From the IMG/VR virus record IMGVR_UViG_3300046642_001000, positions 103,935 through 167,934 of that record: 64,000 bases of DNA; one strand, given 5' to 3'. How positions within the stretch are numbered: the stretch's first letter is position 1; each line of letters begins with the position of its first letter. A program made the translations under genes and the position numbers. Under the pieces are notes generated by a model. It searched no databases. It worked only from the letters and a program-made list of their open reading frames with translations, and was not told the DNA's origin. Source of the DNA: a virus (lineage: Duplodnaviria; Heunggongvirae; Uroviricota; Caudoviricetes). Positions 21,454 through 63,346 of the stretch are shown here, piece after piece.

Positions 21454-21464
21454 CGTGGTATAAT
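21454..21464 (+). promoter_or_regulatory. extended -10 promoter CGTGGTATAAT
   Basis: TGGTATAAT; the annotated ATG lies 10 nt after the hexamer, so the leader is near-absent. Confidence 0.45.
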
Positions 21465-21474
21465 GGATTTCACA

Positions 21475-22452
21475 ATGGCACTCCCGGTACCAGAGAATCT
21501 GGAAGACGCTGCCCTCGTGACCCACAAGGGTTGCATGGACGGCGCGGGATGCGCGATCATGTTCATGTTGGCGGGCGGGAAGCGTGAGAACATCCACTAC
21601 GTCGCCGCCGGCATGGTCGAGAGGTTCGTCAAGAAGGATCCCGTCTTCCAGTCGAACAAGTTCCTGATCTTCGCGGACGTCGGGCTCAACACCCCGAAGT
21701 ACGCCGAGGTCCTCGAGCGTCGTGGCAACCTGGTCCTCATCGACCACCACGACACGTCGCTCCACCTGCTGGGCCGTCACTGGGCGGAGATCGAAGAGAA
21801 GAACCAGCGCTGCGGCACGATGATGCTCAGGGACTACCTGATCAGGATCGACGACGAGAACAAGGTCGGATTCGGGCGGCGGCTCAAGAGCACGAGCTAC
21901 CGGATTTTCGCCGAGTCCATCGACGACCACGACCGCTGGCTACGCCAGAAGCTCCCGTTCTCGGAGGACCTGGCGACCTTCATGGTCTTCGTCGGCCAGC
22001 AGGACTTCATCACCCGCTTCGCCGACCCGAAGGACCGGATCTGTCAGAACATCGCGCTCGGTCGTGGCAAGGTCTACTTCACGCAGTTCGAGGACGACAT
22101 CATCAACATCCTCGACAGGCGTCGAGATGAGGCGATCGAGGAGGCCATGAAGAAGGTCACGGTGAAGGAGATCAAGCTCTCCGACGGGACCCAGGTGATC
22201 GGAGGGTTCGTCGTCACCAACGAGCCCAACATCTCTCTCCTCCTCAACCGGCTCCTGGAAGTCTACCCCCAGGTGCAGATGGCTGTCAGCGTCTGCATCG
22301 AGAAGGGGGCGGTCGGGATCCGCTCACGTGCCGGCGAGCTGGACGTTGGCCGGATAGCCGGCCTACTTGGTGGTGGCGGCCACAAAGGCGCCGCGGGGCA
22401 CAGGCTTCCGCAGGATCTGAGCGAAGTAATCCTGGAGCACATCTATGGCTGA
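21475..22452 (+). CDS. DHH-family phosphoesterase
   Basis: LIDHHDTS (DHH motif) and GGGGHKGAAG (DHHA1 GGGH motif); the ORF-table start at 21463 lies inside the -10, so the second ATG at 21475 is used. Confidence 0.7.
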   Translation: MALPVPENLEDAALVTHKGCMDGAGCAIMFMLAGGKRENIHYVAAGMVERFVKKDPVFQSNKFLIFADVGLNTPKYAEVLERRGNLVLIDHHDTSLHLLGRHWAEIEEKNQRCGTMMLRDYLIRIDDENKVGFGRRLKSTSYRIFAESIDDHDRWLRQKLPFSEDLATFMVFVGQQDFITRFADPKDRICQNIALGRGKVYFTQFEDDIINILDRRRDEAIEEAMKKVTVKEIKLSDGTQVIGGFVVTNEPNISLLLNRLLEVYPQVQMAVSVCIEKGAVGIRSRAGELDVGRIAGLLGGGGHKGAAGHRLPQDLSEVILEHIYG

Positions 22453-23398
22453 TATCCTCGGAGTCTCGTTCGACGACATCTTCGTCAAGCTCCTTCGGAA
22501 GCTGAGCCGGAACCCCGACTTCGTCTGCGCCCCGCGTGGACAGAAGATCAAGGAAGACCTGGCCCTCACGCTCGTCCTGACGGACCCGCGGTCCCGCTTC
22601 ATCCACAACCCGGCCCGGAAGTCGAACTACGGGTTCGCGGCCGGGGAGTTCCTCTGGTACTGGCAGGGTCGCCGGGATCTGGAGATGATGCTCTACTACA
22701 ACCGGCGGATGAAGGACTTCTCGGACGACGGCCACACGCTGAACTCGGCGTACGGCTACCGGCTCCGGGCGGGGTCCGACCTGCTGGACATGGACAGCCA
22801 GTGGAACAACTGCATCGCCACCCTGTCGGGGGACTCGGACAGTCGACGGGCGGTCATGACCATCTTCGCCCCGATCGACGCGGACGTGGCGGTGCACCAG
22901 GGATCGAAGGACGTGCCCTGCACCCTCTCGCTCCAGTTCTTCATCCGTGACGGCGCGCTCCACCTGCACGTCCACATGCGGTCCAACGACGCCATCTGGG
23001 GCCTGACGAATGACCTCTTCAGCTTCACGCTCTTCCAGGAGTGCATGTTCCTGGACCTGAAGCGGCAGAACCCGAAGTTCGCGGACCTGCGCCTCGGCCA
23101 GTACTACCACACGGCCGGCTCGCTCCACCTGTACGAGCGCCACTTCGAGATGGCCGAAGAGGTCATCAAGCTCTACGACGAGGGCTTCAGGTGCTACGAC
23201 GCCATGCCGGCCCTCACCAGCCTCGAGTCTCTGGACAAGCTGGGCTACGACGAGGAAGAGCTTCGCAAGCGTTACATCGACCAGATCCAGCTCTCCAAGT
23301 ACGAGGGCGGGGAGCTGTGGCTGGCCGACGAGTTGAATGTACACCGGCAAAAGAGGGACGCCGAAGAGTCCCTCAAGGGAGACAAGAAAGCAGGCTGA
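22445..23398 (+). CDS. thymidylate synthase (ThyA)-family protein, candidate pyrimidine hydroxymethylase
   Basis: VPCTLSLQFFIRDGALHLHVHMRSNDAIWGLTNDLFSFTLFQ aligns with the ThyA PCH..FQFYV...RS.D...G.PFNI core, but carries Thr where ThyA has His; RRAVMTIF matches the ThyA RR motif. Confidence 0.7.
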   Translation: MADILGVSFDDIFVKLLRKLSRNPDFVCAPRGQKIKEDLALTLVLTDPRSRFIHNPARKSNYGFAAGEFLWYWQGRRDLEMMLYYNRRMKDFSDDGHTLNSAYGYRLRAGSDLLDMDSQWNNCIATLSGDSDSRRAVMTIFAPIDADVAVHQGSKDVPCTLSLQFFIRDGALHLHVHMRSNDAIWGLTNDLFSFTLFQECMFLDLKRQNPKFADLRLGQYYHTAGSLHLYERHFEMAEEVIKLYDEGFRCYDAMPALTSLESLDKLGYDEEELRKRYIDQIQLSKYEGGELWLADELNVHRQKRDAEESLKGDKKAG

Positions 23399-23400
23399 AC

Positions 23401-23880
23401 ATGGGACAGAACATCCGCGATCAGATCAAGGACCTCGAGATCGAGGTCGCCCCGAGCTACCCGCCCAAGGAGTACTCGAGGTTCGACGACTTCACCCGGG
23501 TCACCGACCTGCGACGCGGTCAGGATCTGCTCTACATCGGGTCGAACGCGTACTTCCCCTCGGTGAAGCGCAACGTTCGCACCATCACGACCGTCAAGAA
23601 CAAGCGGGAGCTCGAGAAGCTCCTGTCGGCGGAGCGGGTCTTCGACCGCATCTTCATCGCCCGGGAGAACGTCCTGGACGAGCGGTTGGTCACGGCGGCG
23701 GTGCAGCTCACCGCGGCCAACGGACTGGTGTGCTTCTTCTCGGAAGACGAGGGGCTGCGCGCCGGGTTCCACGAGATCGTCGAGAAGAACTACCCGACGG
23801 CCCAGTCGTGGAACTGCAAGTCCAACGTCGGTCCGCTCGTCATGACCGACGCCAAGGGCAATCCGTCCTACCAGGATTGA
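23401..23880 (+). CDS. hypothetical protein
   Basis: 159-aa ORF immediately after the ThyA-like gene. Confidence 0.5.
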   Translation: MGQNIRDQIKDLEIEVAPSYPPKEYSRFDDFTRVTDLRRGQDLLYIGSNAYFPSVKRNVRTITTVKNKRELEKLLSAERVFDRIFIARENVLDERLVTAAVQLTAANGLVCFFSEDEGLRAGFHEIVEKNYPTAQSWNCKSNVGPLVMTDAKGNPSYQD

Positions 23881-23929
23881 TTGTCCCTGTGACCTCCGCT
23901 CCCATATTTAATCAGCGGAGGATCACAGA

Positions 23930-24307
23930 ATGAGCGCACTTCCCCCCGACATGTTGTACGACGTCTTCAAGCGTCAAGAGGAGTTCATGGAACTCCTGCG
24001 CGTGAACGACAAGCTTCCCGAGTGGCCGGTGGACCTCACCACCAAGCCCGGCCAACGCCTCATCAAGGAGACGGCCTTCAACCTCTCCGACGAACTCCAC
24101 GAGGCGATGGCCACCCTCAAGAACAAGATGCACCGGCTGACCGACGATCGCACCCTCGACTTCGGTCACTACAAGGAAGAGCTCGGGGACGCCTTCGCGT
24201 TCTTCCTCGAGATCTGTCTCCTCAGCGGGATCGGGGCGGACGACCTCTACGAGGAGTACTGCCGCAAGAACAAGACCGTCAAGGAAAGACTGGCCAAGGG
24301 CTACTGA
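23930..24307 (+). CDS. MazG-like nucleoside triphosphate pyrophosphohydrolase
   Basis: EELGDAFAFFLEICLL EExGD motif in an all-alpha context. Confidence 0.6.
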   Translation: MSALPPDMLYDVFKRQEEFMELLRVNDKLPEWPVDLTTKPGQRLIKETAFNLSDELHEAMATLKNKMHRLTDDRTLDFGHYKEELGDAFAFFLEICLLSGIGADDLYEEYCRKNKTVKERLAKGY

Positions 24308-24525
24308 TGGGCCGGTTGCCGGGAGACATCTGCGCCAGGTGCCTGACCCGTCAGGGGACGGAGATCTGGACGGAGGGTACGATGGCCTACATCCACGGCG
24401 CGTACCAGATGTACTGCAAGGTCTGCGTCCTGACCTGCCAGATCCAGCACGCCAAGGAACGGGCGGCGGCGATCCCGGAGATGGAGCGGGAACTGGAAGA
24501 GCTGAAGAAGGTGGTGGATGGATAG
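24307..24525 (+). CDS. small Cys-rich protein
   Basis: 72-aa ORF with CxxC ... C...C; ATGA overlap. Confidence 0.4.
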   Translation: MGRLPGDICARCLTRQGTEIWTEGTMAYIHGAYQMYCKVCVLTCQIQHAKERAAAIPEMERELEELKKVVDG

Positions 24526-26939: not shown

Positions 26940-26950
26940 TGTGATATAAT
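26940..26950 (+). promoter_or_regulatory. extended -10 promoter TGTGATATAAT
   Basis: lies 6 nt upstream of the dnaE ATG, implying a leaderless transcript. Confidence 0.45.
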
Positions 26951-26956
26951 ACTCCT

Positions 26957-29900
26957 ATGCTCAAGGAGTTCGCCTCCTTTCACAACCATTCTCACTTCTC
27001 GGTCTTCGACGGCCTCTCCCTCCCGGAAGAGCTGCTGAAGGCCGCGAAGGAGAAGGGTCTCAAGTCCATCGCCCTCACCGATCACGGTGTGACACACGGT
27101 CACGCCGACTGGTACCTGATGGGGAAGAAGATGGGCGTGAAGACCGTCTTCGGCGTGGAAGCCTACGTCATCCACGACCTCAAGGAGTGGAAGGCGCTGA
27201 AGGGGGAGATCGACTCCCAGAAGCGGAAGGGCGCCAAGAAGGAAGACAACGAGTACACCGCCGACGGTGACGTCGTCGATCCCAAGGCCCTTCGACGCAA
27301 GGGCCACCTCGTCATCCTCGCCAGCAACCGGGAGGGTCTCAGCAACCTCTACCAGCTCACGTTCAAGGCCCACAAGTTTGGCTTCTACCAGAAGCCACGC
27401 ATGGATAAGGTGATGCTCCAGGAGCACGCCAAGGGCCTGATCGCGACCTCGGCCTGCATGGGCGGCGTCATCTCCAAGCGGCTGTGGGACCTGAAGGAAG
27501 GGTCCTGCACCTGGGAGGACGTCAAGAACGAGGTCCTCGACTACGACCGGATCTTCGGCCGTGGCCGGTTCTACCTCGAGCTCCAGTTCAACGAGATGGA
27601 CAAGGAGCAGAACTACATCAACACCTCCCTCGTCCAGCTCCACAAGGAGACGGGCGTCCCGCTGACGGTGACCACGGACTCACACTACGCCACCCAGGCG
27701 GAGTGGGAGCCACGAGAGCTTCTCCACCTCATGGGCTGGAGCAAGAAGACGGTCGCCGACCTGCCGGAACAGAAGCTCGACTCACAGGTCAAGCAGCTCT
27801 TTGTGAAGTCTCCCGAGGAGATGTGGCTCACCTACGAGAAGCTGGCCGGTCACTGCATCGATCCGAAGACCGCGATGGAGGCGTTCCAGGGGACGCTCCT
27901 CATCGACAGCCTCATCGAGGACTTCGAGCCCGACACTCACCAGCGCCTGCCCACCCTCCCCTTCGCCAATCCCTACAAGGAGATGGGCATGCGGGCCATC
28001 GCCGGCCTGAAGAAGCTGGGACTGGCGGAGAACGAGATCTACAAGGACCGCCTCCTCTTCGAGCTCGGGGTCATCAAGCAGAAGGGGATCTCGAACTACT
28101 TCCTCGTCTGCCAGCAGATCATCGAGGAAGCCAAGAAGTACATGCTTGTCGGTCCAGGCCGCGGCTCAGCCGCCGGCTCCCTCGTGTGCTGGTGCCTGGG
28201 CATCACGGACCTCGACCCGATCAAGAGAGACCTGCTCTTCGAACGCTTCCTCGACATCGACCGCGCCGAGCTCCCCGACATCGACACGGACTTCGAGGAT
28301 CCCAAGGCCGCCAAGCGGATGCTTCAGAAGATGTTCGGGGACGACAACGTCGCCTCCCTCAGCTCGTACGGCACGTTCCAGATCAAGGGACTGCTGAAGG
28401 ACCTGGGGCGTGTGTACGGCGTCGACCACAACCTCATCAACAAGCTCAACCGGCAGATCGACAAGGAGCTCAAGGTCCTCTACGTGGACCAGGACAAGAG
28501 CACCCTCGTGGTCAAGCTGGACGACATCATCCGGGTCAGCCCGTCGTTCAACACCTTCGTGGAAGAGAACCCCGACCTGGGCAGCAAGATCAAGACTCTC
28601 TACGGCCGGATCAGGCACGTCACCCGGCACGCGGCTGGTGTCATCATCGGCGACAACCTGCCGGCGGAGACCAGCTGCTTCGTCGCCAAGGCCAAGGGCA
28701 AGAAGACCAAGGACAACGAAGACGGGGAGGACGACACACTGGCCGAAGAAGGCGAGATGGTCGTCCAGTGCTCGTTCACCGAGGGCATCGTCAACAAGAA
28801 CCTCTCGGCCATGGGCTTCGTCAAGATGGACATCCTCGGGCTGGCCAACCTGCGCGTCATCCGGTGCGCCCTGGAACACATCAGCTCACGGACCGGCAAG
28901 AGCTTCGACGAACTCTACGAGGGACTGCGTTCGCACAACATGGACCTCGATGACATCAAGGTCATGAAGAACATCTTCTGGGACGGGAACTTCGGAGCCA
29001 TCTTCCAGTTCTCGAACCCGGGCATCCGGGCGCTGGCCAAGCGGGTCAAGCCGGACAGCTTCGTCGACGTCTCGGCCATCTGCTCTCTCTACCGCCCCGG
29101 CCCGCTCAAGGGTGGGTATGACAAGGTCTACGTCACGGCGAAGCACGGGGAGATCGCCTCCCTCGGTCACCCGGTGCTGGACGAGATCCTCGGTTCGACC
29201 AAGGGCTGCCTCGTCTTCCAGGAGCAGCTCATGAAGGTCTGCTCCGTCTTCGGCAAGATGACGGGCAAGGAAGTCAACCGCGTCCGCAAGGTCCTGCTGA
29301 AGAAGGACAAGAGCAAGACGGAAGAGTTCTTGAAGCAGGAGAACGACGTCCTCTACGCCAGCTTCCACAAGGGCTGCATGGAGCACGGCTTCCCCGAAGA
29401 CAAGACCCTGAAGCTCTGGGAAGACATCAAGGCCTTCGGCGGCTACGCCTTCAACAAGAGCCACTCGGATGCCTACTCCCTCACCACGATGCAGACGGCG
29501 CACCTGGCGACCTACTACCCGCTGGAGTTCTACACGGCGGCCCTGACGAAGGCGCAGGCCAACGCGATCCAGACTCTGGTGGCAGACATCCAGAAGACGG
29601 GGATCAAGATCCTCCCGGTGGACATCAACAAGAGCCGGGCGGCCAACATCATCGAGGGCCTGTGCATCCGGCTGGCCCTCGGACGTGTCCTCGGCGTGGG
29701 TCCGTCCGTGATCGAAAAGATCGTGGCCAACCAACCATACACCTCGTTCCAGGACTTCCTCGACAGGTCCAAGGCCAACAAGACGGCGGTCGAGGCGCTC
29801 ATCCAGGTGGGAGCCTTCGGGTCTCTCCCCGGCTGCGGCAACATCAAGCGGCTCTGGGAGGCATACCGGAAGTGGACCGACAACGTCCTCGTCACCCTCG

Positions 29901-30484
29901 ACGGGGAGCTGAAGATCGTCGACGAGAAGGTGTCAGGCGGTCCGAAGCTGGCCCGAGTCCAGTCGGTCAAGGGCCGTCCACGCTGGGACGAGCTCTACTC
30001 CCGGATCATGACGGATGAGAAGATCGAAGACTTCAAGCTCCACGAGAAGGTCTTCCTCGAGAACGAGCTCATGGAGTTCAGCCTCGCGGGTACTCCCTTC
30101 GAGATCCTCGACCGGAAGAAGAAGATCACCGCCATGTTCGATGGGGTGGTCTCCACGATGGAGGAGTTCCTCGGCGGCGAGGAAGAGATGACGATGCTCC
30201 CGGTCGTGGTGAAGGAGTGGAAGGAGAAGCCCCAGCGCAACGGGCAGATGTTCGCCTTCATCAAGTTCGCCACGGAAGACGGGGAGACGTTCGACGTCCC
30301 GGCCTTCGCGAACATGTGGAAGTGGATCTCACCCGTCATCCGCAAAGGCTCGGTCTACATCGCCACCTTCAACAGAGACATCGACGATGACCCCGAGCGC
30401 CTGAAGCTCGGCCGGCCGGGGTGGGCGCAGAGCCAGCATTCGACGATGCAGGCCTTCATCAATGTGGACGACATAAGTCTCTAG
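26957..30484 (+). CDS. dnaE: DNA polymerase III alpha subunit (DnaE-type)
   Basis: N-terminal PHP domain HNHSHFSVFDG ... ALTDHG; 1175 aa. Confidence 0.85.
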   Translation: MLKEFASFHNHSHFSVFDGLSLPEELLKAAKEKGLKSIALTDHGVTHGHADWYLMGKKMGVKTVFGVEAYVIHDLKEWKALKGEIDSQKRKGAKKEDNEYTADGDVVDPKALRRKGHLVILASNREGLSNLYQLTFKAHKFGFYQKPRMDKVMLQEHAKGLIATSACMGGVISKRLWDLKEGSCTWEDVKNEVLDYDRIFGRGRFYLELQFNEMDKEQNYINTSLVQLHKETGVPLTVTTDSHYATQAEWEPRELLHLMGWSKKTVADLPEQKLDSQVKQLFVKSPEEMWLTYEKLAGHCIDPKTAMEAFQGTLLIDSLIEDFEPDTHQRLPTLPFANPYKEMGMRAIAGLKKLGLAENEIYKDRLLFELGVIKQKGISNYFLVCQQIIEEAKKYMLVGPGRGSAAGSLVCWCLGITDLDPIKRDLLFERFLDIDRAELPDIDTDFEDPKAAKRMLQKMFGDDNVASLSSYGTFQIKGLLKDLGRVYGVDHNLINKLNRQIDKELKVLYVDQDKSTLVVKLDDIIRVSPSFNTFVEENPDLGSKIKTLYGRIRHVTRHAAGVIIGDNLPAETSCFVAKAKGKKTKDNEDGEDDTLAEEGEMVVQCSFTEGIVNKNLSAMGFVKMDILGLANLRVIRCALEHISSRTGKSFDELYEGLRSHNMDLDDIKVMKNIFWDGNFGAIFQFSNPGIRALAKRVKPDSFVDVSAICSLYRPGPLKGGYDKVYVTAKHGEIASLGHPVLDEILGSTKGCLVFQEQLMKVCSVFGKMTGKEVNRVRKVLLKKDKSKTEEFLKQENDVLYASFHKGCMEHGFPEDKTLKLWEDIKAFGGYAFNKSHSDAYSLTTMQTAHLATYYPLEFYTAALTKAQANAIQTLVADIQKTGIKILPVDINKSRAANIIEGLCIRLALGRVLGVGPSVIEKIVANQPYTSFQDFLDRSKANKTAVEALIQVGAFGSLPGCGNIKRLWEAYRKWTDNVLVTLDGELKIVDEKVSGGPKLARVQSVKGRPRWDELYSRIMTDEKIEDFKLHEKVFLENELMEFSLAGTPFEILDRKKKITAMFDGVVSTMEEFLGGEEEMTMLPVVVKEWKEKPQRNGQMFAFIKFATEDGETFDVPAFANMWKWISPVIRKGSVYIATFNRDIDDDPERLKLGRPGWAQSQHSTMQAFINVDDISL

Positions 30485-30793: not shown

Positions 30794-31096
30794 ATGACCA
30801 AGGACAACAACGGCCCGTACAGCATCGGGTCGACGTTCTGGCCTGGGCTCTCGAAGCTCGTCGAGGAGTGCGGCGAGGTCGTCCAGGTGGTGGGCAAGTT
30901 GCTTGGCACCGGGGGAGAGACCAAGCACTGGAACGTCCCCGACCTCAAACGCGCCCTAGAGGAGGAGATCGCCGACGTGATGGCGGCCTGCTCTTTCGTG
31001 ATCGAGGAGTGCCAGCTGGACGCGGGGTTCGTGTACACCCGCTACCAGATGAAGAAGGAACGCTTCAAAGAATGGCACAACGGCAGCAAACTGTGA
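30794..31096 (+). CDS. MazG-like NTP pyrophosphohydrolase, second paralogue
   Basis: LVEECGEVVQ and LEEEIADVMA motifs. Confidence 0.6.
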   Translation: MTKDNNGPYSIGSTFWPGLSKLVEECGEVVQVVGKLLGTGGETKHWNVPDLKRALEEEIADVMAACSFVIEECQLDAGFVYTRYQMKKERFKEWHNGSKL

Positions 31097-31102
31097 TACA
31101 AT
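31092..31102 (+). promoter_or_regulatory. extended -10 promoter TGTGATACAAT with the upstream gene's stop codon embedded
   Basis: the TGA of the MazG-like gene supplies the TG-n; a GGAGG Shine-Dalgarno-containing leader follows. Confidence 0.4.
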
Positions 31103-31121
31103 AACAATCCTGGAGGCAACA

Positions 31122-32951
31122 ATGACCATCGCAACCGTGCTCGCGTTCTGGTGGGTCGTACCCATCGTCCTGACCCTCGTGCTCTACAAGTTCGTGCTCC
31201 GGCTCTGCTTCGGGATGGTCTCCGTCTCGAAGGACGAGGTCGGCATCGTCGACAAGAAGTTCGCCCTCTTCGGCGCGAAGACCCTGCCCGACGGTGCCGT
31301 CATCGCCCTGAAGGGTGAGGCCGGCTTCCAGGCGGACACGCTGGCCCCTGGCGTCCACTTCGGCCTCTGGCCGTGGCAGTACGCGGTCACCCTCCAGAAG
31401 TTCGTGAACATCCCGGAGAACCACGTCGGGCTCATCGAGTCGCGAGGTGGCCAGGTTCCGGTGAACGGTCGAGTCCTCGCGCGAAAGGTCGAGTGTGACT
31501 CGTTCCAGAACGCCCGCGCCTTCCTCGAGGCAGGCGGAGAACGTGGTCCCCAGATCGCCATCATCACCCCCGGCACCTACCGCATCAACACGGTCCTCTT
31601 CTCCCTGAGGATCGTGGAGGCTCTCGAGATCCCCGACAACATGGTCGGCGTGGTCACCACCAAGGACGGCAAGCCCCTCTCGACCGGTGACATCGCCGGC
31701 GGAGAGTTCCCCGGCCACAACATGTACCAGGACGGCGAGGCCTTCATCACCGCCGGTGGCTACAAGGGCCTGCAGGAGCAGGTCATCCTGGCCGGCCTGT
31801 ACTACATCAACCCGCTCTTCGCCACCGTGGAAGTGAAGCCGATGACCGAGGTGCCCATCGCCAATGCTGGCGTGGTCATCGCCTACGTCGGTGGGGTCGG
31901 TGTGGACGTCACGGGTGAGTCCTTCAAGCACGGCAACCTCGTGGTCCGTGGGCAGAAGGGTGTGTGGGTCGAGCCGCTGGACCCGGGCAAGTACCCGATC
32001 AACCCGTACACCCACAAGGTCGAGGTCGTGCCGACGGCCAACGTCGTCCTCAACTGGGCGACCGGCAAGACCGAGGCGCACAAGCTGGACGCCAACCTGT
32101 CCACCATCACGGTGCGTAGCTCCGACGGCTTCAAGTTCAATCTGGACGTGAGCCAGATCATCCACATCCCCCGGACCGACGCCCCCAAGGTCATCGCCCG
32201 CTTTGGCAGCGTGGCCAACCTGGTCACCCAGGTCCTGGAGCCGACCATCGGCAACTACTTCAGGAACGCGGCCCAGGGCTCGGACGCCATCGCCTTCCTC
32301 AAGGAGCGCGAGAAGCGCCAGCAGGACGCCCGGGCTTCCATCAACAACGCCCTGAAGGAGTACAACGTCGGAGCGGTGGACACCCTCATCGGTGACATCA
32401 CCCCGCCGGACGCCCTCATGGAGACCCTGACGAAGCGGAAGATCGCCGAGCAGGAGAAGATCACGTTCGACACCCAGCGCATGGCCGAGGAGACCCGCAA
32501 GGAGTTCGAGCAGGCCAAGGCGATGGCGGCCACCCAGGCCAACGTCGTCGAGTCCCAGCGGAAGGTCCAGATCGCCGAGTTCGACGCCCAGTCGGCGGTC
32601 AAGAAGGCGGAAGGCGACGCCCAGTCCAAGACCATCAACGCCAAGGCGGATGCCGAGGTGCTCGTGGCCATCGGTGACGCCGAGGGCAAGAAGATCACGG
32701 CGGTCGGCACGGCCGAGGCCGAGGTCATCCAGAAGAAGACCGACGCGAACGGCAAGGCCAACTACGCCCTCATCGAGGTGGCACGCGCCCTCTCCTCGTC
32801 CGGTCACGCCCTGGTCCCGGAGATCATGGCCGGTGGCGGTCTCGACGGCAACAACCAGGGCGGCCTGGTGAACGTCCTCCTGGCCGGCCTCATCAAGGAC
32901 GGCCTCTCGAAGAACGGCAGCAACGGCGGCGGCACTCCCGAGTCCCACTAA
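31122..32951 (+). CDS. flotillin/SPFH (band 7) family membrane protein
   Basis: N-terminal transmembrane segment, an SPFH-like domain, and a long Ala/Glu-rich coiled coil (EAEVIQKKTDANGKANYALIEVARAL). Confidence 0.65.
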   Translation: MTIATVLAFWWVVPIVLTLVLYKFVLRLCFGMVSVSKDEVGIVDKKFALFGAKTLPDGAVIALKGEAGFQADTLAPGVHFGLWPWQYAVTLQKFVNIPENHVGLIESRGGQVPVNGRVLARKVECDSFQNARAFLEAGGERGPQIAIITPGTYRINTVLFSLRIVEALEIPDNMVGVVTTKDGKPLSTGDIAGGEFPGHNMYQDGEAFITAGGYKGLQEQVILAGLYYINPLFATVEVKPMTEVPIANAGVVIAYVGGVGVDVTGESFKHGNLVVRGQKGVWVEPLDPGKYPINPYTHKVEVVPTANVVLNWATGKTEAHKLDANLSTITVRSSDGFKFNLDVSQIIHIPRTDAPKVIARFGSVANLVTQVLEPTIGNYFRNAAQGSDAIAFLKEREKRQQDARASINNALKEYNVGAVDTLIGDITPPDALMETLTKRKIAEQEKITFDTQRMAEETRKEFEQAKAMAATQANVVESQRKVQIAEFDAQSAVKKAEGDAQSKTINAKADAEVLVAIGDAEGKKITAVGTAEAEVIQKKTDANGKANYALIEVARALSSSGHALVPEIMAGGGLDGNNQGGLVNVLLAGLIKDGLSKNGSNGGGTPESH

Positions 32952-35540: not shown

Positions 35541-35546
35541 AGGTCT

Positions 35547-39181: not shown

Positions 39182-39194
39182 AGGACAGGTGAGC

Positions 39195-47149: not shown

Positions 47150-47155
47150 GTAACC

Positions 47156-51095: not shown

Positions 51096-51217
51096 AAGCA
51101 TCTCAGCTTAGACTGTCCCGTCACCTCATTTTCCTTCCTATAATAAAGGAAAAAAAGAGGTCCCCAGAGTGAAAAAAGACTACGTCTTAGCATTTTTTGT
51201 TTCACTTTGGTGGAGAC

Positions 51218-51228
51218 TGTGATATAAT
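51218..51228 (+). promoter_or_regulatory. extended -10 promoter TGTGATATAAT in an AT-rich intergenic island
   Basis: followed by a 58-nt leader with an AAAGGA Shine-Dalgarno; preceded by a hairpin and a T-run. Confidence 0.45.
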
Positions 51229-51286
51229 CTTCTTATTGGTTGACAACGGATCGGCAGGGAAGCCGACCACTGAAAGGACAACGAAC

Positions 51287-51748
51287 ATGGCGAACGAGAA
51301 CGAGACGATCGAGACCGCGACCGAAGGCACCGAGGACATGGGCCAGAAGCTCAAGAAGGCGGGCAAGAAGGCCGAGGCGCAGAAGGCGGCCCGCCGGGAG
51401 CGCACCGTCAAGGGCAGCCACCTCCTGCCGCAGCTGACCTCCGCGGAGCGCATCAACGGCCTCGCCACCGAGGACAAGAGCGGCTTCACCAAGATCGTCG
51501 GCAAGATCAAGGGCCGCGCGATCTACGTGGCCAAGAAGGGCGGCCGCGTGGACCTCTCGGGGTTCACGGTCGAGTCCCCGGCGGTCGCGCAGATCACCGA
51601 GGAAGAGGCTCGCCAGAAGCACCTCGGCAAGGTGCGCGGTCAGCTGGACTTCAACGCGGCGGACGACGCGGTCCTCGCGGCCTACGACTCGGCCCTGGCG
51701 GTCCTCGCCGAGGAGCCGGCCCCGGCCCCCGAGGCGGAGAGCAAGTAG
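51287..51748 (+). CDS. hypothetical protein, paralogue of the gene at 56041..56427
   Basis: GRAIYVAKKGGRVDLSGFT...QITEEEARQKHLGKVRGQLDF matches GKIVYIAKSADVRRIDISGFT...QISDEDAKARKLGKVRAQVDF. Confidence 0.55.
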   Translation: MANENETIETATEGTEDMGQKLKKAGKKAEAQKAARRERTVKGSHLLPQLTSAERINGLATEDKSGFTKIVGKIKGRAIYVAKKGGRVDLSGFTVESPAVAQITEEEARQKHLGKVRGQLDFNAADDAVLAAYDSALAVLAEEPAPAPEAESK

Positions 51749-52114: not shown

Positions 52115-52125
52115 TGTGGTATGAT
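52115..52125 (+). promoter_or_regulatory. extended -10 promoter TGTGGTATGAT
   Basis: ATG at 52133 lies 7 nt after the hexamer (leaderless); the ORF-table start at 52121 falls inside the hexamer. Confidence 0.4.
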
Positions 52126-52132
52126 TGTACCT

Positions 52133-52387
52133 ATGAGAGACCCCAATAGGATTCCGCGCATCATCGCCCTCCTCACGGAGTACTGGCAGCGAGCGCCAGA
52201 CCTCAGGCTCGGGCAGATCATCATGAACTTCACCCCGTCCCGTGGGGTGTGCGACTGCCCCACGTTCTCGAAGCGGGGCTTCCACGACATCGAGTGCTCC
52301 ACCTTCGACCGAGACCCCTACAACTGGGAGGACGACCACTGGGAAAAAGCGCTGCAGCAGGCATTGGCCGAGATCGGCCACCCGTGA
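52133..52387 (+). CDS. hypothetical protein
   Basis: 84-aa ORF. Confidence 0.45.
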   Translation: MRDPNRIPRIIALLTEYWQRAPDLRLGQIIMNFTPSRGVCDCPTFSKRGFHDIECSTFDRDPYNWEDDHWEKALQQALAEIGHP

Positions 52388-52535: not shown

Positions 52536-52596
52536 GTGTACACCTGAAGGATCTTGGGATAGAATGTAATTTCAATTGGATATGGAGAACCCAATG
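52536..52596 (+). promoter_or_regulatory. class B promoter (GTGTACACC, then 15 nt, then TAGAAT) plus a conserved leader/ribosome-binding cassette
   Basis: 24-nt fixed spacing from GTGTAC to the hexamer; CAATTGGATATGGAGAACCCAATG is 22/24 identical to 57585..57608. Confidence 0.5.
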
Positions 52597-53571: not shown

Positions 53572-53780
53572 TGTTCAATCTCATCCTGCTCGGAGTGTTC
53601 GTCTGGGGAGTCGTGGAGGTCCTGACGGGGCTCCGCATCCTGATGTACGTCCCCCTCATCCTGCTGGCCAAGTGCTTCGCCAAGCCCATCCAGATCGGGT
53701 ACACGCCCGAGGTCCTGAAGCGGATGGACCGGGAGGCCAAGCGGCGGGACAAGGACGAACACGGCATCCCCTACCTCTAG
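53571..53780 (+). CDS. small membrane protein
   Basis: 69 aa with two hydrophobic helices; TGATG overlap. Confidence 0.45.
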   Translation: MFNLILLGVFVWGVVEVLTGLRILMYVPLILLAKCFAKPIQIGYTPEVLKRMDREAKRRDKDEHGIPYL

Positions 53781-54130
53781 ATCACCCGCCGTCCCTTGCC
53801 GTCATACACGAGCACCAACATGGTGTAGCCACTCATCCGCGCCCAGGACCACTTGGCGGTGTTCTTGCGCTTGTTCCGGGCCATGGTGTAGGGGGACTTG
53901 ATCTCGACCATCGTGTTGGTCTTCGGGATGTAGAAGTCGGGGTAGTACGTGTGCCAGCGCTTGCCGATCTTGTACCTGATGGGCGGGGCGGGGACCACCA
54001 CGTCGTGGACCGTCAGCCCGAAGCGTTCCAGGTCCTTCAGGAAGAAGGGTTCGTAGCCCTGTACCCGGAACTTCTTGCCTTCGACGACGACGTTCTTGAA
54101 CCTATACTTGTAGCGGCGCTTCTTCTTCAC
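53777..54130 (-). CDS. PD-(D/E)xK-type nuclease-like protein
   Basis: a reverse-strand gene with native GC3 codon bias; GTG start; the E..ER ... YYPDFYIP ... VEIKSPY pattern fits a restriction-endonuclease-fold catalytic core. Confidence 0.55.
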   Translation of the reverse strand: MKKKRRYKYRFKNVVVEGKKFRVQGYEPFFLKDLERFGLTVHDVVVPAPPIRYKIGKRWHTYYPDFYIPKTNTMVEIKSPYTMARNKRKNTAKWSWARMSGYTMLVLVYDGKGRRVI

Positions 54131-54141: not shown

Positions 54142-54171
54142 GTGTACTTCAGGTAGACTCCGTGATAGATT
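54142..54171 (+). promoter_or_regulatory. class B promoter: GTGTACTTC, then 15 nt, then TAGATT
   Basis: 24-nt spacing; ATG at 54178 lies 6 nt after the hexamer; diverges from the reverse-strand nuclease gene. Confidence 0.45.
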
Positions 54172-54177
54172 AGAACC

Positions 54178-54489
54178 ATGGAAAAAAAGGAAGTGGTGAT
54201 CGAGGTTGGAATGGGCGCGACGCTGTGCGGCTGGACGGACAAGACTCCGGCCACGGTGATCGAGGTCCATGACACCTGGTTCAGGGTGCGTGAGGACAGC
54301 TACAAGCGCATCGACAAGAACGGGATGAGCGAGTCCCAGGAGTACGAGTACTCGCCGAACCCGGAGGGGGCGACGTACACCTTCACCAAGCGCAAGAACG
54401 GGCGCTGGGTCCAGAAGGGGTGCGCCATGGGCAAGGGCACGAAGGTCTCCGTCGGAGTCCGTCGGGCCTGGTACGACTTCAGCTTCTAA
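54178..54489 (+). CDS. hypothetical protein
   Basis: 103-aa ORF. Confidence 0.5.
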   Translation: MEKKEVVIEVGMGATLCGWTDKTPATVIEVHDTWFRVREDSYKRIDKNGMSESQEYEYSPNPEGATYTFTKRKNGRWVQKGCAMGKGTKVSVGVRRAWYDFSF

Positions 54490-54709: not shown

Positions 54710-55300
54710 ATGGAACGCAAGGTCCCGAAGGGTGAGGTGCCCGCCGTGGTCCTCATCAACCCGAACTTCAGCCACAACGTGGGTGCCGCCCTCCGTGGCT
54801 GCTCCTGCTTCGACGCCAAGCAGCTCTGGTGGACGGGGAAGCGGGTCCAGATCGACCTGAACTCGGGCGAGCGCCTGAAGCGGGAAGAGCGGATGAAGGG
54901 CTACAAGAACGTGGTCTGGACGAACCACGACCGTCCGCTGGACCAGTTCCCGGCGGGTGTGGTACCGGTGGTCGTGGAGCTCCTGGCCACCAGCGAGCCG
55001 CTGACCACGTTCGTCCACCCTGAGAACGCAGTCTACATCTTCGGGCCCGAGGACGGGGACGTGCCGGTCTCTATCCGGACGCTGGCCCACCGCTTCGTCT
55101 TCATCCCCAGCCGCCACTGCCTGAACCTCTCGGCGGCGGTGAACGTGGTGCTGGCCGACCGCATGATGAAGCGGCAGCTGGCCGGGCTGGAGCCCATCGT
55201 CCCGGTCGGGGAGATGCTGTGGGAGGACCGGGACCAGGCGCGGCCGCCCCGTGGCTTCTTCTCTCCGGAGCTGGACAAGTTCGGCCTGGACGGGAGGTAG
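54710..55300 (+). CDS. SpoU/TrmH-family (SPOUT) RNA 2'-O-methyltransferase
   Basis: NVGAALR, YIFGPEDGDVP, and IP....CLNLSAAVNVVL motifs. Confidence 0.6.
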   Translation: MERKVPKGEVPAVVLINPNFSHNVGAALRGCSCFDAKQLWWTGKRVQIDLNSGERLKREERMKGYKNVVWTNHDRPLDQFPAGVVPVVVELLATSEPLTTFVHPENAVYIFGPEDGDVPVSIRTLAHRFVFIPSRHCLNLSAAVNVVLADRMMKRQLAGLEPIVPVGEMLWEDRDQARPPRGFFSPELDKFGLDGR

Positions 55301-55303: not shown

Positions 55304-55603
55304 ATGCAGACCAGAAAGCGTGGCAAGAGCGGGACCAGGATCCCGGTCAGCTCCCTCTCCAGCATGCTCCTCGCCTCGGTGCGGGCCTACGCCGCGTTGG
55401 CCAAGTGGATCAACCGGCGCCCGAACCTCGGCAAGTACAAGGACCACTACATGGCTCAGACCGAGGTGAGCCGGGAAGTCCTCGAGCACCTGCAGCGGGA
55501 CCTCGACGGGGTGTGCCGACCTGAGGACATGCAGGCGGTGGCGGACGCGATCCACCGACTCTGCGCCCACTCGGTCTGGGCCAACGAACCCATCGACAAA
55601 TAG
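55304..55603 (+). CDS. hypothetical protein
   Basis: 99-aa ORF. Confidence 0.45.
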   Translation: MQTRKRGKSGTRIPVSSLSSMLLASVRAYAALAKWINRRPNLGKYKDHYMAQTEVSREVLEHLQRDLDGVCRPEDMQAVADAIHRLCAHSVWANEPIDK

Positions 55604-55635
55604 TCCTTTACATCTCGTTCGTCTTGTAGTAAAGT
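55603..55635 (+). promoter_or_regulatory. class A-like promoter: GTCCTTTAC then 18 nt then TAGTAAAGT
   Basis: same 27-nt spacing from GTCCTT, with a weaker -10. Confidence 0.35.
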
Positions 55636-55644
55636 GGTTCTATC

Positions 55645-55821
55645 ATGGCCAAGGGGAAGGTGATAGACACGATCAAGATCCCCAGGGACAAGGCCAAGGA
55701 GTGCCGGACCCGCTCACGTGCCACGTTCGGCAAGCCTGGTCTCGGCCGGAAGACGAGCTTCAAGGACCGGAAGAAGGACGGCAACCGCAAGGCCTGCCGT
55801 CAACCACCAGAGGAGGAGTGA
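55645..55821 (+). CDS. small basic protein
   Basis: 58 aa, Lys/Arg-rich. Confidence 0.4.
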   Translation: MAKGKVIDTIKIPRDKAKECRTRSRATFGKPGLGRKTSFKDRKKDGNRKACRQPPEEE

Positions 55822-57546: not shown

Positions 57547-57608
57547 GTGTACTCCAGATAGATCTGGTGTTAGAATGGATCTATCAATTGGATATGGAGA
57601 CCACAATG
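57547..57608 (+). promoter_or_regulatory. class B promoter (GTGTACTCC, then 15 nt, then TAGAAT) plus the second copy of the conserved leader cassette
   Basis: CAATTGGATATGGAGACCACAATG carries a GGAGA Shine-Dalgarno 5 nt before the ATG at 57606. Confidence 0.5.
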
Positions 57609-58526: not shown

Positions 58527-58556
58527 TGTGTACTCCTGGTTTTCTTTGTAGTATAA
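58527..58556 (+). promoter_or_regulatory. class B promoter: GTGTACTCC, then 15 nt, then TATAAT
   Basis: 24-nt spacing; followed by the GGATCTATAAG initial transcribed sequence. Confidence 0.45.
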
Positions 58557-58586
58557 TGGATCTATAAGTTGCCAAGGAGTGCCAAA

Positions 58587-58847
58587 GTGGCCCTGTCCTG
58601 CACCGACTGTGGACTGGAACATGACTTCGACGACGCCCCGGACATCGGGGAATGCATCGCTTGCGGCGGGGAGCTGGTGGAAGACGACCAGCCTCCCGTG
58701 GACCGGGCGGCCCGTTGCCGGGAGATCATGAGCCGAACCATCGACAATCTCGCCTCAGCCCGAGGCACCACCCGGGAGGCCGTCTTGGCCACCATGGCAG
58801 CGAGGGGATACACCCAGCCCCGCAAGCCGACGGGTGGAGCCAACTAG
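58587..58847 (+). CDS. zinc-ribbon protein
   Basis: GTG start 8 nt after AAGGAG; CTDCG ... CIACGG. Confidence 0.45.
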   Translation: MALSCTDCGLEHDFDDAPDIGECIACGGELVEDDQPPVDRAARCREIMSRTIDNLASARGTTREAVLATMAARGYTQPRKPTGGAN

Positions 58848-60158: not shown

Positions 60159-60191
60159 GTCCTTCCCCTCTCGTAGGTTCCGTGGTATAAT
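60159..60191 (+). promoter_or_regulatory. class A promoter: GTCCTTCCCC TCTCGTAG GTTCC GTGGTATAAT
   Basis: 27-nt spacing; ATG at 60199 lies 7 nt after the hexamer. Confidence 0.5.
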
Positions 60192-60198
60192 CTTCTTA

Positions 60199-60372
60199 AT
60201 GATGAAGATGATATACGACCGTCCGTCTCCCCGGCTTCGGAAGGAGCTGGGCACGGACACCCCATCCCTCGTCATCCGCAAGAAGTACATCCCGCAGGAG
60301 GGCCGGCGTCCGTACCGGCTCCTCCTGAAGGTGATCTGCACCAGCGGGCAGGTCGGCTGGATCGACCCATGA
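60199..60372 (+). CDS. small hypothetical protein
   Basis: 57 aa, leaderless-type start, with an ATGA overlap to the next gene. Confidence 0.4.
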   Translation: MMKMIYDRPSPRLRKELGTDTPSLVIRKKYIPQEGRRPYRLLLKVICTSGQVGWIDP

Positions 60373-60904: not shown

Positions 60905-60937
60905 GTCCTTCCCTTCTTGGGAGGGAGAGGGTATAAT
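60905..60937 (+). promoter_or_regulatory. class A promoter: GTCCTTCCC, then 18 nt, then GGGTATAAT
   Basis: 27-nt spacing; ATG at 60944 lies 6 nt after the hexamer. Confidence 0.45.
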
Positions 60938-60943
60938 ACCTAT

Positions 60944-62116
60944 ATGACGACCACCAATGACCTCCAGTTGCCTCGGCCCAACACGGGCGCACGGGCTGTC
61001 ATCGACCAGCTGCGTCAGCGCCCGTTGACGTACTCCGACGCGGTAGGCATCTACCGCATTGCCCGACGGAACCTCTCCGGCGTCTATCCGAGCCTGAGCC
61101 ACGTCGGCCTGACCCTCACCCGCATCCTCAAGAAGTACGGCTACAAGGGCGGGAAGCCCGGCAGCCGCGCGCCCTGGCATTTCCGCCCGCAGTCGGTCAG
61201 CGGGATCATCTCGGGCGTCCCCCTCCCGGACATCGACACGGACCTGGACGAGGGGACCGAGGTGGCCGACTTCGTCAGCGACCGCTTCAGCCTGCCCGAG
61301 GACGAGGCTCCGAAGACCAAGACCTACGAGGTGGCCAGCTACAAGGTCGACGGCCTCGTGAAGTACTCGGGCCCCCTGGAGCAGGACCGCAACATCCTGG
61401 GCCGCATCATGGGGGTCGACCTCATGGCCGAGACCTGCGACGTCATGTGGGCCACGACCACGGAGCGGGAGTACAACGTCCCGATGGAGGACCTGACGGT
61501 CTACAAGGACTCCATCTCCCGCAAGTCCTCCGGCTCCGACGACGTCGGCGGCGCCTACACTCGCCAGATCGTTCCCGGCTTCGAGATCGGGGACGAGGTC
61601 ACCTACGACGGGTCGGAGTACGGCATCAAGGGAAAGCGCGGCAAGGTGGTCGGCATCTACCGCTCGCGCCGCCAGGTGCAGTGGGAGGGGAACCACGGCC
61701 AGTCGTCCGAGATCCTCGCCGACCTGAAGGCGGTTCCCAAGGCGCCCGAGCCGGAGCCCCTGAAGGTCGGACAGTACGTCGAGTGCAAGAAGGACCGCCT
61801 CACCTTCCCGGCGAAGGTCCTGCTCGGTCCCATGAGCAACGGGCTCTACAAGGTCGTCTGCCCGAACGGCACGTTCGAGTGGGTCGGTCGTGACCAGATG
61901 ACCCCGAAGGAGGAACGCGAAGTGTATCAAGCCACCCCCGAGAAGCCCCAGTACGAGGGCCAGCCCGAGGAATCGGAGCGCACCCGCTCCCTCCGCGCCC
62001 AGCTCGCCGCCAGCCAGCACCGCGACCAGCTGACCCACTGGGCCCGCTTGGCCGTCCGGGCCATGAGCCCCGAACAGAAGGACGTGCTCCTCGAAGTCCT
62101 GAAGCAGGAGGTCTAA
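60944..62116 (+). CDS. hypothetical protein
   Basis: 390 aa; the longer ORF-table start at 60824 would precede the promoter. Confidence 0.5.
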   Translation: MTTTNDLQLPRPNTGARAVIDQLRQRPLTYSDAVGIYRIARRNLSGVYPSLSHVGLTLTRILKKYGYKGGKPGSRAPWHFRPQSVSGIISGVPLPDIDTDLDEGTEVADFVSDRFSLPEDEAPKTKTYEVASYKVDGLVKYSGPLEQDRNILGRIMGVDLMAETCDVMWATTTEREYNVPMEDLTVYKDSISRKSSGSDDVGGAYTRQIVPGFEIGDEVTYDGSEYGIKGKRGKVVGIYRSRRQVQWEGNHGQSSEILADLKAVPKAPEPEPLKVGQYVECKKDRLTFPAKVLLGPMSNGLYKVVCPNGTFEWVGRDQMTPKEEREVYQATPEKPQYEGQPEESERTRSLRAQLAASQHRDQLTHWARLAVRAMSPEQKDVLLEVLKQEV

Positions 62117-62711: not shown

Positions 62712-62712
62712 A

Positions 62713-62745
62713 GTCCTTCTCTTCTCGTAGAAATTGTGGTATGAT
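62713..62745 (+). promoter_or_regulatory. class A promoter: GTCCTTCTC TTCTCGTAG AAATT GTGGTATGAT
   Basis: 27-nt spacing. Confidence 0.45.
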
Positions 62746-62754
62746 TATTCTATC

Positions 62755-63003
62755 ATGCCATACAGATCCCTCCCCTCAGTCCCCAAAGGCGCACCCTGCC
62801 GTTGCACCCACTGGCTGAGATTCACTCAGACGGAGTCTGGTCGCATCTGGCGGTGCTGCTCCTGCCGGTCAGACAACCACTTCCCCGTCCAGTTCTGCCA
62901 GGCCTGCGGTCATGCACGGGACCTCACCAGCGGGGAGACGGACGTGTGCCTGGTGGATCTAGGCCTGGCGCAGTTCGGCACCCACTCGAAGGGGCCGAGG
63001 TGA
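62755..63003 (+). CDS. Cys-rich zinc-finger protein
   Basis: CRC ... CCSC ... CQAC. Confidence 0.45.
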   Translation: MPYRSLPSVPKGAPCRCTHWLRFTQTESGRIWRCCSCRSDNHFPVQFCQACGHARDLTSGETDVCLVDLGLAQFGTHSKGPR

Positions 63004-63015
63004 TCGGAGCATTTT

Positions 63016-63048
63016 GTCCTTTCTATCTTGTAGATTCCGTGGTAGAAT
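63016..63048 (+). promoter_or_regulatory. class A promoter: GTCCTTTCT ATCTTGTAG ATTCC GTGGTAGAAT
   Basis: 27-nt spacing; the GGATCTATAAG initial sequence and a GGTGGAGGG Shine-Dalgarno precede the ATG at 63071. Confidence 0.5.
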
Positions 63049-63070
63049 GGATCTATAAGGTGGAGGGAAG

Positions 63071-63346
63071 ATGATCACGACGCTGAAGATCAAGGACGAG
63101 CCGGACGTTCTCATCGGGAGCAAGGTAGTCTGGTCCGAGGGCTGCAAGCCGTACCGGGTCGTCCTGCGGAAGCTGGAGCCCGGGCAGTACGTCACCCACA
63201 AGGAGACGCTGGGCATCGAGGGCGACACCTTCATGCACGACAGCTGGTTCTCGGGGAACTACTTCTCGGAGTTCCCGACCAAGGACGACGCGAAGTCCTA
63301 CGAGAAGGCGCTGGACGACTACCGCACTCGCGTGGAGAAACTCTAA
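63071..63346 (+). CDS. hypothetical protein
   Basis: 91-aa ORF. Confidence 0.5.
   Translation: MITTLKIKDEPDVLIGSKVVWSEGCKPYRVVLRKLEPGQYVTHKETLGIEGDTFMHDSWFSGNYFSEFPTKDDAKSYEKALDDYRTRVEKL

Follow-up and report, generated by a model that had tools for sequence, protein, structure and literature searches.

Extended -10 promoters adjoining start codons point to leaderless mRNAs in an uncultivated jumbo phage

We analysed a 64-kb stretch of a phage genome (IMG/VR virus record IMGVR_UViG_3300046642_001000), hereafter called the window, which harbors a family of promoter-like sites, many of them situated within a few nucleotides of a start codon. The phage is uncultivated and its genome is about 205 kb in size; the sequence of the window also turned up in several metagenomes and an IMG/VR viral contig, and the longest contig that contains it has 204,762 bp. 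The window has 62% G+C, a third-position G+C content (GC3) of about 0.8-0.9 and more A than T on the + strand, and nearly all open reading frames (ORFs) with coding-type composition are found on this strand. It consists of a replication and nucleotide-metabolism region and a region of small genes. Encoded are a family A DNA polymerase-like protein (PolA; 1635-3074, + strand), DnaE-like Pol III alpha (26957-30484, + strand), RecA, DnaB, a 5'-3' exonuclease, ribonucleotide reductase (RNR), Cpn10 and metallophosphatases; many other genes are small and their function was not recognised. Megablast of the window against 50,697 phage records gave no match, and protein identity to cultured phages amounts to about 36% at most. 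DnaE homologs with 45-76% identity are present on many contigs of about 200 kb, with 34-63% G+C. Because the DNA matches no cultured phage and the DnaE homologs reside on contigs of such size, the window derives from a clade of uncultivated jumbo phages.

Altogether 21 promoter-like sites of one family, with the consensus yGTGrTAtAAT, were found in the window, and all those described below lie on its + strand. The matrix of 20 sites reads y, G at position -4 (17/20), T and G at -3 and -2 (18/20 and 17/20), r, T-A-t-A-A-T and r-g, with hexamer positions A2 and T6 invariant. TG one base 5´ of the hexamer, together with the invariant A2 and T6, is the mark of the extended -10 element (TGn), and the family belongs to the extended -10 class of sigma-70-type promoters, with an additional G at -4. 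The TTGACA element is weak or absent; its -35 slot is occupied by TTCCCN (inside GTCCTTCC) or by TGTACN. Upstream sequence divides the promoters into three classes. In the first, GTCCTT(C/T)C (GTCCTTCC) begins exactly 27 nt 5´ of the hexamer, which is the case at six sites (47117, 55603, 60159, 60905, 62713 and 63016); these are six of the sole eight occurrences of GTCCTT on the + strand, while the - strand has 88. The second class is defined by GTGTAC exactly 24 nt 5´ of the hexamer at four sites (52536, 54142, 57547 and 58528), and the third is plain GTGrTATAAT. Promoters of the replication module possess neither of the two upstream elements. An unbiased repeat finder returned the first and second class as the biggest repeat families at 47-64 kb. 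We suggest that GTCCTT(C/T)C may be a variant -35 element or may bind an activator encoded by the phage.

Chance is excluded as the source of the motif and of its position relative to ATG codons. TATAAT occurs 12 times in the window (11 times on the + strand, once on the - strand), compared to 0.78 +/- 0.99 occurrences expected from dinucleotide-preserving shuffles, and none of 100 shuffles reached 12. Similarly, GTGNTANNNT has 14 occurrences on the + strand and a single one on the - strand, with 6.7 expected for both strands summed. We counted those TGNTANNNT sites that have, 5-10 nt downstream, an ATG with which an ORF of 50 or more codons begins. This holds for 9 of 17 sites on the + strand, for 0.76 upon random placement (with a maximum of 6 in 10,000 trials), and for none of 10 sites on the - strand. 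Further, a separate scan for -35/-10 pairs was enriched over shuffles (6 vs 2.2; 7 vs 2.0), with these promoter sites as the best matches. The canonical -35 scan found at best 4/6 matches and called no promoter at 56-64 kb, despite at least seven sites of the family there. One TATAAT, at 51139, was rejected as a promoter: it sits in the loop of an A/T-rich hairpin (51128-51162, TTTTCCTT / AAGGAAAA) between two genes, which is more likely to be a terminator-like or regulatory structure.

About 12-13 of the 21 sites lie 5-10 nt from a start codon, and the commonest gap is 6 nt. This gap occurs five times: in 26941-26959 (GTGA TATAAT, hexamer 26945-26950) before ATG 26957 of the DnaE-like protein; in 35531-35549 (GTGG TATAAT, 35535-35540) before ATG 35547 of a conserved protein of 403 amino acids (aa); in 47117-47158 (GTCCTTCC at 47117, GTGG TATAAT, 47144-47149) before ATG 47156 (225 aa); in 54142-54180 (GTGTAC at 54142, GTGA TAGATT, 54166-54171) before ATG 54178 (103 aa); and in 60905-60946 (GTCCTTCC at 60905, GGG TATAAT, 60932-60937) before ATG 60944 (390 aa). 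Gaps of 7 nt precede ATG 52133 (84 aa; 52116-52135, GTGG TATGAT, 52120-52125) and ATG 60199 (57 aa, MMKMIYD; 60159-60201, GTCCTTCC at 60159, GTGG TATAAT, 60186-60191). The only gap of 5 nt is found at the polymerase gene with ATG 1635 (1620-1637, TGA TATTAT, 1624-1629). In all eight genes the A of ATG is thus the 6th-8th nucleotide past the hexamer, which is the canonical +1 position, and the first seven are predicted to be leaderless, with 1635 as a further candidate. Four genes have gaps of 8-10 nt: ATG 21475 of a DHH/DHHA1 phosphoesterase (10 nt; 21455-21477, GTGG TATAAT, 21459-21464), for which a 5´ untranslated region (5´UTR) of 2-4 nt is expected; ATG 44721 (8 nt; 44703-44750, GTAG TATAAT, 44707-44712), with an alternative in-frame ATG 44748; ATG 55645 (58 aa; 9 nt, ggttctatc; 55603-55647, GTCCTT at 55603, TAAAGT, 55630-55635); and ATG 62755 (82 aa; 9 nt; 62713-62757, GTCCTTCT at 62713, GTGG TATGAT, 62740-62745). 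The genes at 21475, 55645 and 62755 are classified as near-leaderless candidates. At 39172-39197 (TTGG TATAAT, 39176-39181), 7 nt lead to GTG 39189 and 13 nt to the in-frame ATG 39195; GTG 39189 is possibly a leaderless start, ambiguous with ATG 39195.

The preliminary description of the window had listed ten starts, each located 6-10 nt past TATAAT and devoid of a Shine-Dalgarno (SD) sequence. Their geometry was recovered in all ten, but the hexamer is exactly TATAAT in only seven (the others are TATGAT at 52120, TAGATT at 54166 and TATTAT at 1624), and the gap falls into the given range in nine, the exception being 1635. The sites before 55645 (TAAAGT, 9 nt), 62755 (TATGAT, 9 nt) and GTG 39189 (TATAAT, 7 nt) were absent from that list. 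The same description placed four naive ORF starts inside the -10 element. This is correct for 21463 and 52121, which overlap the hexamer because the consensus runs on as TAnAATGG and thereby makes an ATG. It is not correct for ATG 41452, which lies 3 nt past TAGAAT (41443-41448), nor for GTG 57567, which falls in the TGn extension that immediately precedes the hexamer. As cases for the proposed mode of initiation, 44721 and 41452 are doubtful.

The lack of SD sequences at the listed starts was borne out by energies of duplexes with the anti-SD sequence. The median is -3.0 kcal/mol for 14 candidate starts vs -8.2 kcal/mol for 45 SD-led starts (p = 9e-8), and energies of the candidates cannot be told apart from those of background ATGs; for ATG 1635 the value is +0.6 kcal/mol, i.e. 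no SD is present. All candidate ORFs have coding-type GC3 of 0.80-0.89 (0.85 for the ORF at 47156). In ten genes, namely those of DnaE, the 403-aa protein, the DHH protein, the 390-aa protein encoded at 60944, PolA and the small proteins encoded at 52133, 54178, 55645, 60199 and 62755, the first Met is common with orthologs. For example, the N-terminus of DnaE (MLKEFASFHNHS) has the same first Met in six relatives. The 403-aa protein begins with M/V-R-x-G-Y-S-Y-W-G-F (MRIGYSYWGF here) at the same start position in six relatives, and eight homologs of the protein encoded at 60944 share its first Met. Homologs of the polymerase encoded at 1635 have about 480 aa, are of equal length and are co-linear from residue 1. 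The ortholog of the DHH protein in the related contig L009 starts at the equivalent Met (MLPKPE vs MALPVPE), so that 21475 is favoured over 21463. In the loci fetched, no ortholog of the protein encoded at 47156 was found.

The strongest support for the predicted leaderless geometry comes from related phages. Three high-GC contigs, L018, L019 and L020, were reached via homologs of the protein encoded at 60944 (43-63% protein identity), and they have the same first Met in their orthologs of the proteins encoded at 52133, 54178, 55645, 60199 and 62755. Among their TGNTANNNT sites on the coding strand, 16/26, 9/19 and 9/16, respectively, lie 5-10 nt before an ATG that begins an ORF, compared to an expectation of 0.6-0.9; the opposite strand contains zero qualifying sites. 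The 16 adjacent sites of L018 lie within 21 kb. When spacing is pooled over six loci (the window and five related ones), one sharp peak appears at exactly 6 nt (32 sites), besides a second, diffuse cluster at about 18-27 nt that corresponds to leadered genes; none are on the - strand. The 7th nucleotide past the hexamer is A at 57 of the 78 pooled sites. Orthologous promoters, when aligned, agree without exception in the -10 hexamer, the -35-region element, the ATG and the gapless 6-nt distance, and they differ in bases of the spacer and of the discriminator.

Individual genes conform to this picture. TCCTTCC, GTATAATA and the 6-nt gap of the 60944 promoter are invariant in four phages, and three orthologs of the gene at 54178 have the same Met with the -10 hexamer exactly 6 nt upstream. 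The orthologs of 55645 in L018 and L019 retain the 9-nt spacing and tctatc, those of 60199 in L019 and L018 start identically, after a gap of 6 nt, and the L019 ortholog of 62755 (MPYRS) has TATATT, 6 nt and ATG. Similarly, the L018 ortholog of 52133 has TGGTACAAT, 6 nt and ATG with the same MRDP start, and the L013 ortholog of 44721 has TGATATAAT, 9 nt and ATG. The dnaE gene of L009 has TGGTAATTT, 5 nt and ATG, but that of L008 has a GGGAG SD instead. In other relatives, including low-GC ones, orthologs of dnaE and of the gene at 35547 (the latter in six relatives) rely on SD or translational coupling at the same Met; the mode of initiation therefore changes while the protein start stays constant. 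Three of four sites in L009 show the adjacent geometry, and L010 shows it partly.

Several features of the upstream regions were recorded alongside. The GTCCTT(C/T)C element is frequently followed by TCTCGTAG and is kept in L018-L020. In an IMG/VR scan, the contig of the window and that of L019 were the sole ones with multiple matches to the composite GTCCTTCC-N15-GTGGTANNNT. The spacer after GTGTAC(AC) frequently contains TAGACTCCG, which creates a tandem -10-like box; this class is abundant in L018 and L019. Relatives have the GTCCTTCC element in the promoter of the 54178 ortholog, where the window has GTGTAC. At several leadered promoters (57559-57585, 58558-58565 and 63049-63056) the initial transcribed sequence directly 3´ of the -10 element is GGATCTAT, which is conserved. 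An inverted repeat, TAGATC ... GATCTA, flanks the -10 hexamer at 57571, which suggests a repressor operator. The distant relative L010 has the same arrangement at about 860-890.

The same promoter motif and upstream elements also occur at a distance from genes that have a ribosome-binding site of their own. Seven such promoters (31097, 51223, 52560, 57571, 58552, 63043 and 63957) have leaders of 17-57 nt with SD sequences of GGAGG or AGGAG type. In 31093-31124, GTGA TACAAT (31097-31102) is followed by a 19-nt leader with GGAGG and ATG 31122 of a Band_7 protein, and in 51219-51289, GTGA TATAAT (51223-51228) by a leader of about 50 nt and ATG 51287 (AGGA). In 52536-52596, GTGTAC (52536), 18 nt and TAGAAT (52560-52565) precede a leader with GGAG and ATG 52594 of a P-loop ATPase, which begins MTLSLVK and whose start and SD are kept in L018, L019 and L020. 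In 57547-57608, GTGTAC (57547) and TGT TAGAAT (57571-57576) are followed by the leader GGATCTATCAATTGGAT and either ATG 57594 or the SD-led ATG 57606. In 58528-58589, GTGTAC (58528), TAG TATAAT (58552-58557) and a 29-nt leader with AGGAG lead to GTG 58587, which is kept with its SD in L018 and L019. Finally, 63016-63073 comprises GTCCTTTC (63016), GTGG TAGAAT (63043-63048), a 22-nt leader with GGAGG and ATG 63071, and 63953-63982 comprises GTGG TAGTAT (63957-63962), a 17-nt leader with AGGAGG and ATG 63980 of an ORF that exits the window. At 52594, 58587 and 63071 both SD and start are conserved, and promoter motif and upstream elements are as at the sites predicted to be leaderless. The strong GGAGG-type SD sequences noticed earlier at other genes of the window are real, and the view that the phage mixes both modes of initiation holds, as one type of promoter precedes also genes whose leaders carry a conserved SD.

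We propose, with a probability of roughly 80%, that the extended -10 promoters of the window produce mRNAs that are leaderless or have leaders of at most 4 nt. Presumably, the host RNA polymerase with the primary sigma factor would read about 21 promoters. At 12-13 of them, transcription would start on the A of AUG or 1-4 nt before it. The resulting mRNA would possess neither 5´UTR nor SD, and the ribosome would load directly on the 5´-terminal AUG. Operon-internal genes and first genes of the other 8-9 promoters would use GGAGG-type SD sequences. Such an interpretation, already put forward in the preliminary description, is favoured by the spacing, the absence of SD, the N-termini of orthologs and the conserved geometry. 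The position of transcription start, recognition by host RNA polymerase and leaderless translation are what we infer from the established geometry of promoters and from documented cases in Thermus phages, Deinococcus and Actinobacteria.

Several observations weigh against this interpretation or narrow it. Firstly, intrinsic terminators are not enriched over shuffles in the window; therefore, read-through transcripts in which the candidate ATGs are internal must also exist. Secondly, with gaps of 8-10 nt, the mRNAs of 21475, 44721, 55645 and 62755 would have short leaders (2-4 nt) instead of being strictly leaderless, and ATG 44721 competes with the in-frame ATG 44748, which has GGAGG 5 nt upstream, so that it is ambiguous whether this gene is near-leaderless or SD-led from 44748. 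Thirdly, the promoter at 41439-41505 (GTGA TAGAAT, 41443-41448) precedes not only ATG 41452 but also ATG 41503 of a lipoprotein (MRTILALGVAMLMLAGC, preceded by purine-rich GGGAAGAAAGGA). ATG 41452 is probably not the genuine start. As it is only 3 nt from the -10 element and both signal peptide and the L009 ortholog fit 41503, the start is most likely 41503 and mRNA of the 41443 promoter is then leadered. (The lipoprotein gene, annotated as 41452-42063, has a LAGC lipobox and a long C-terminal region rich in Asp, His, Lys and Cys.) Further, structure at the 5´ end of candidate mRNAs is not significantly lower than in SD-led genes (p = 0.27). The geometry is also not a trait of the whole clade, an assumption we rejected: L016, a relative with 60% G+C, has zero adjacent sites in 19 kb, and low-GC relatives L008 and L013-L015 have them at or near chance expectation. 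Finally, no match to the 60944 protein family and DnaE was found in the species-representative genomes scanned.

Three other explanations were considered, which even together appear unlikely. The motifs might be promoters for phage-encoded or modified machinery (a sigma factor, an RNA polymerase or a sigma-appropriation factor), in which case the geometry of the start could differ and 5´ ends of mRNAs might not fall on the ATG. GTCCTTCC and GTGTAC indeed stand in for the canonical TTGACA -35 element and are conserved in relatives, the window represents just 64 kb of a genome of about 205 kb, and jumbo phages often carry their own transcription factors. We nevertheless consider this improbable, since the -10 element is a near-perfect consensus of bacterial primary sigma factors with TGn extension, no gene for a sigma factor or RNA polymerase was found in the 64-kb window, and the spacing peak exactly at the canonical +1 speaks for standard geometry. 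Even if an accessory factor took part, the -10 element would continue to fix the start, as in middle promoters of T4.

It is also conceivable, but hardly probable, that the TAnnnT boxes are not promoters at all and serve as A/U-rich unstructured elements for initiation or standby, replacing SD in long polycistronic transcripts. Long read-through transcripts are likely given that terminators are not enriched, AGG or AGGA follows some of the boxes (35535, 39176 and 44707), and the boxes are the most A/T-rich spots of a genome with 62% G+C. On the other hand, conservation falls on the positions typical of an extended -10 promoter (G-T-G-r upstream, A2 and T6 invariant), the upstream elements are fixed at exactly 27 or 24 nt, in the -35 region, and a spacing of 6 nt is what separates -10 from the start of transcription and not the optimum from SD to start codon. 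Moreover, where the motif stands 17-57 nt upstream of genes with their own SD, it cannot be a ribosome-binding site. The motif is thus a promoter and not a signal for translation. Least of all do we expect that the boxes, though real promoters, give ordinarily leadered mRNAs translated from SD-led in-frame codons further downstream, with the adjacent ATGs being incidental: 44748 with its GGAGG, the signal peptide beginning at 41503 after a purine-rich stretch, and 1728 (GTG) and 54211 (ATG) with SD-like cores can be quoted in its favour, but N-termini of orthologs match the promoter-adjacent Met in ten genes, a strictly conserved 6-nt gap would be unexpected for an incidental ATG, and most candidates have no downstream SD-led start.

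Leaderless transcription from such promoters has precedents. The Thermus phages phiYS40 and Lalka27a produce mostly leaderless transcripts, and their TANNNT promoters, sometimes TGx-extended, have class-specific consensus (bioRxiv 10.64898/2026.04.20.719267). These phages resemble the window in that their promoters consist mainly of the -10 element, sometimes extended by TG, with class-specific upstream features, that most first genes begin at the 5´ end of their transcript (as proposed for the window), and that SD-led genes coexist. There is, however, no sequence relationship, as judged from the lack of a megablast match and from protein hits of at most 36% identity to cultured phages. The window phage has about 205 kb and 62% G+C, comes from non-thermal samples (one relative is from farmland soil), and its upstream elements GTCCTTCC and GTGTAC are unlike the ones described in Thermus phages. 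What the phages share is a strategy and not a lineage. Close kinship to Thermus phages P23-45 or phiYS40 was rejected on the same grounds, i.e. no megablast match in the 50,697 phage records.

In Deinococcus, the TANNNT motif is located 6-7 bp before about 1/3 of ORFs, where it replaces the ribosome-binding-site motif and acts as promoter (PMC12340547). The spacing mode of Deinococcus-Thermus is the same as in the window (6 nt), but it is a genome-wide feature of cells with TACACT as the commonest hexamer, whereas the window belongs to a phage and has hexamers near TATAAT with a strong GTGr extension. In Corynebacterium glutamicum, 33% of mRNAs are leaderless, and tgngnTA(c/t)aaTgg is the consensus of the extended -10 element (PMC10024154). 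The consensus of the window, yGTGrTAtAAT(g)(g), fits it position by position, and the -35 element is poorly conserved. An actinobacterial host would be conjectural; best cultured-phage hits of ThyX and RNR are alphaproteobacterial and a TrmH-like gene resembles an acidobacterial one. Leaderless genes were predicted to constitute 13-39% in Acidobacteria, Actinobacteria, Deltaproteobacteria, Aquificae and Deinococcus-Thermus (PMC3160421). Thermus phages and several bacterial phyla are thus already known to use the strategy, of which the window phage would be a further instance. The classic leaderless phage mRNA is that of lambda cI, which is transcribed from PRM, starts at the A of AUG and has no SD. 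There, a single regulatory gene is concerned, in a host with rare leaderless translation, whereas in the window this would be the main mode for promoter-proximal genes.

Clues to the host are few. No tRNA genes were found in the window and an Rfam search of it gave no hits. The best hits of ThyX and RNR in cultured phages, alphaproteobacterial phages with 30-36% identity, are uninformative in this respect. The window has a gene for a SpoU/TrmH-family RNA 2'-O-methyltransferase (54710-55300) that the syntenic region of L018-L020 lacks, and its product is 61% identical to that of a chromosomal gene of Candidatus Sulfotelmatobacter (Acidobacteriota). Homologs are also present on phage-like megacontigs; one of them resides on L021 (ENA ERZ27256783 k141_1799929, 546,627 bp), a contig full of small unrecognised genes that looks like a megaphage. 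The acidobacterial locus has few weak -10-adjacent starts and no GTGr extension. The gene is a possible clue to the host, only a lead, and its product might conceivably modify tRNA or rRNA during infection.

Other genes of the window deserve a brief mention. An ORF of 2301 aa (5616-12521) has a TTG start preceded by GGAGG. Its product is no tape-measure protein; the sole recognisable features are a cytidylyltransferase-like domain and a weak kinase-like match. Genes for ThyA-like protein, ThyX, dCMP deaminase, a MazG-like protein and a glycosyltransferase of the GT75/RGP family, at 22445-23398, 33188-34321, 37281-37700 and 43162-44028, suggest modified, possibly glycosylated, DNA bases; the glycosyltransferase gene adjoins dnaE in all relatives. 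The sole convincing minus-strand gene (53777-54130) encodes a DUF7487 / TnsA-like endonuclease, is found in the same location in L018 and L019 and has a GTG start 10 nt past a TACACT box; it may be a mobile nuclease of homing type. DnaE of this phage with 62% G+C is 76% identical to that of L008 (GC 0.40), and the spread of 34-63% G+C among the contigs of about 200 kb implies that base composition changes rapidly and that the hosts are very different.

If the leaderless reading is right, the current understanding is not overturned, and the strategy of Thermus phages would be extended to a lineage of uncultivated jumbo phages. In annotation, promoter-proximal starts in this clade would belong at the ATG 6 nt past the -10 hexamer, while naive gene callers choose ATGs made by TAnAATGG or miss short genes. 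Because orthologs of dnaE and of the gene at 35547 are SD-led in relatives, a promoter appears to be insertable directly at a start codon with the protein unchanged. The host would need efficient translation from 5´-terminal AUG, which narrows the candidates to phyla rich in leaderless genes (PMC3160421). We tentatively extend this to a broader hypothesis, more speculative than the rest, that leaderless mRNAs may account for most early and middle gene expression in a whole clade of uncultivated jumbo phages with high GC and genomes of about 200 kb, in which small genes could have up to about one promoter each. The clade-specific elements GTCCTTCC and GTGTAC might then be read by phage-encoded factors for timing, and the host might belong to a soil phylum, e.g. 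Acidobacteriota, in which leaderless translation is experimentally unstudied. Orthologous genes would change between SD-led and leaderless initiation among relatives that differ in G+C content and host. If this is true, such phages would provide a natural system for studying the evolution of initiation modes, and possibly a marker for host prediction.

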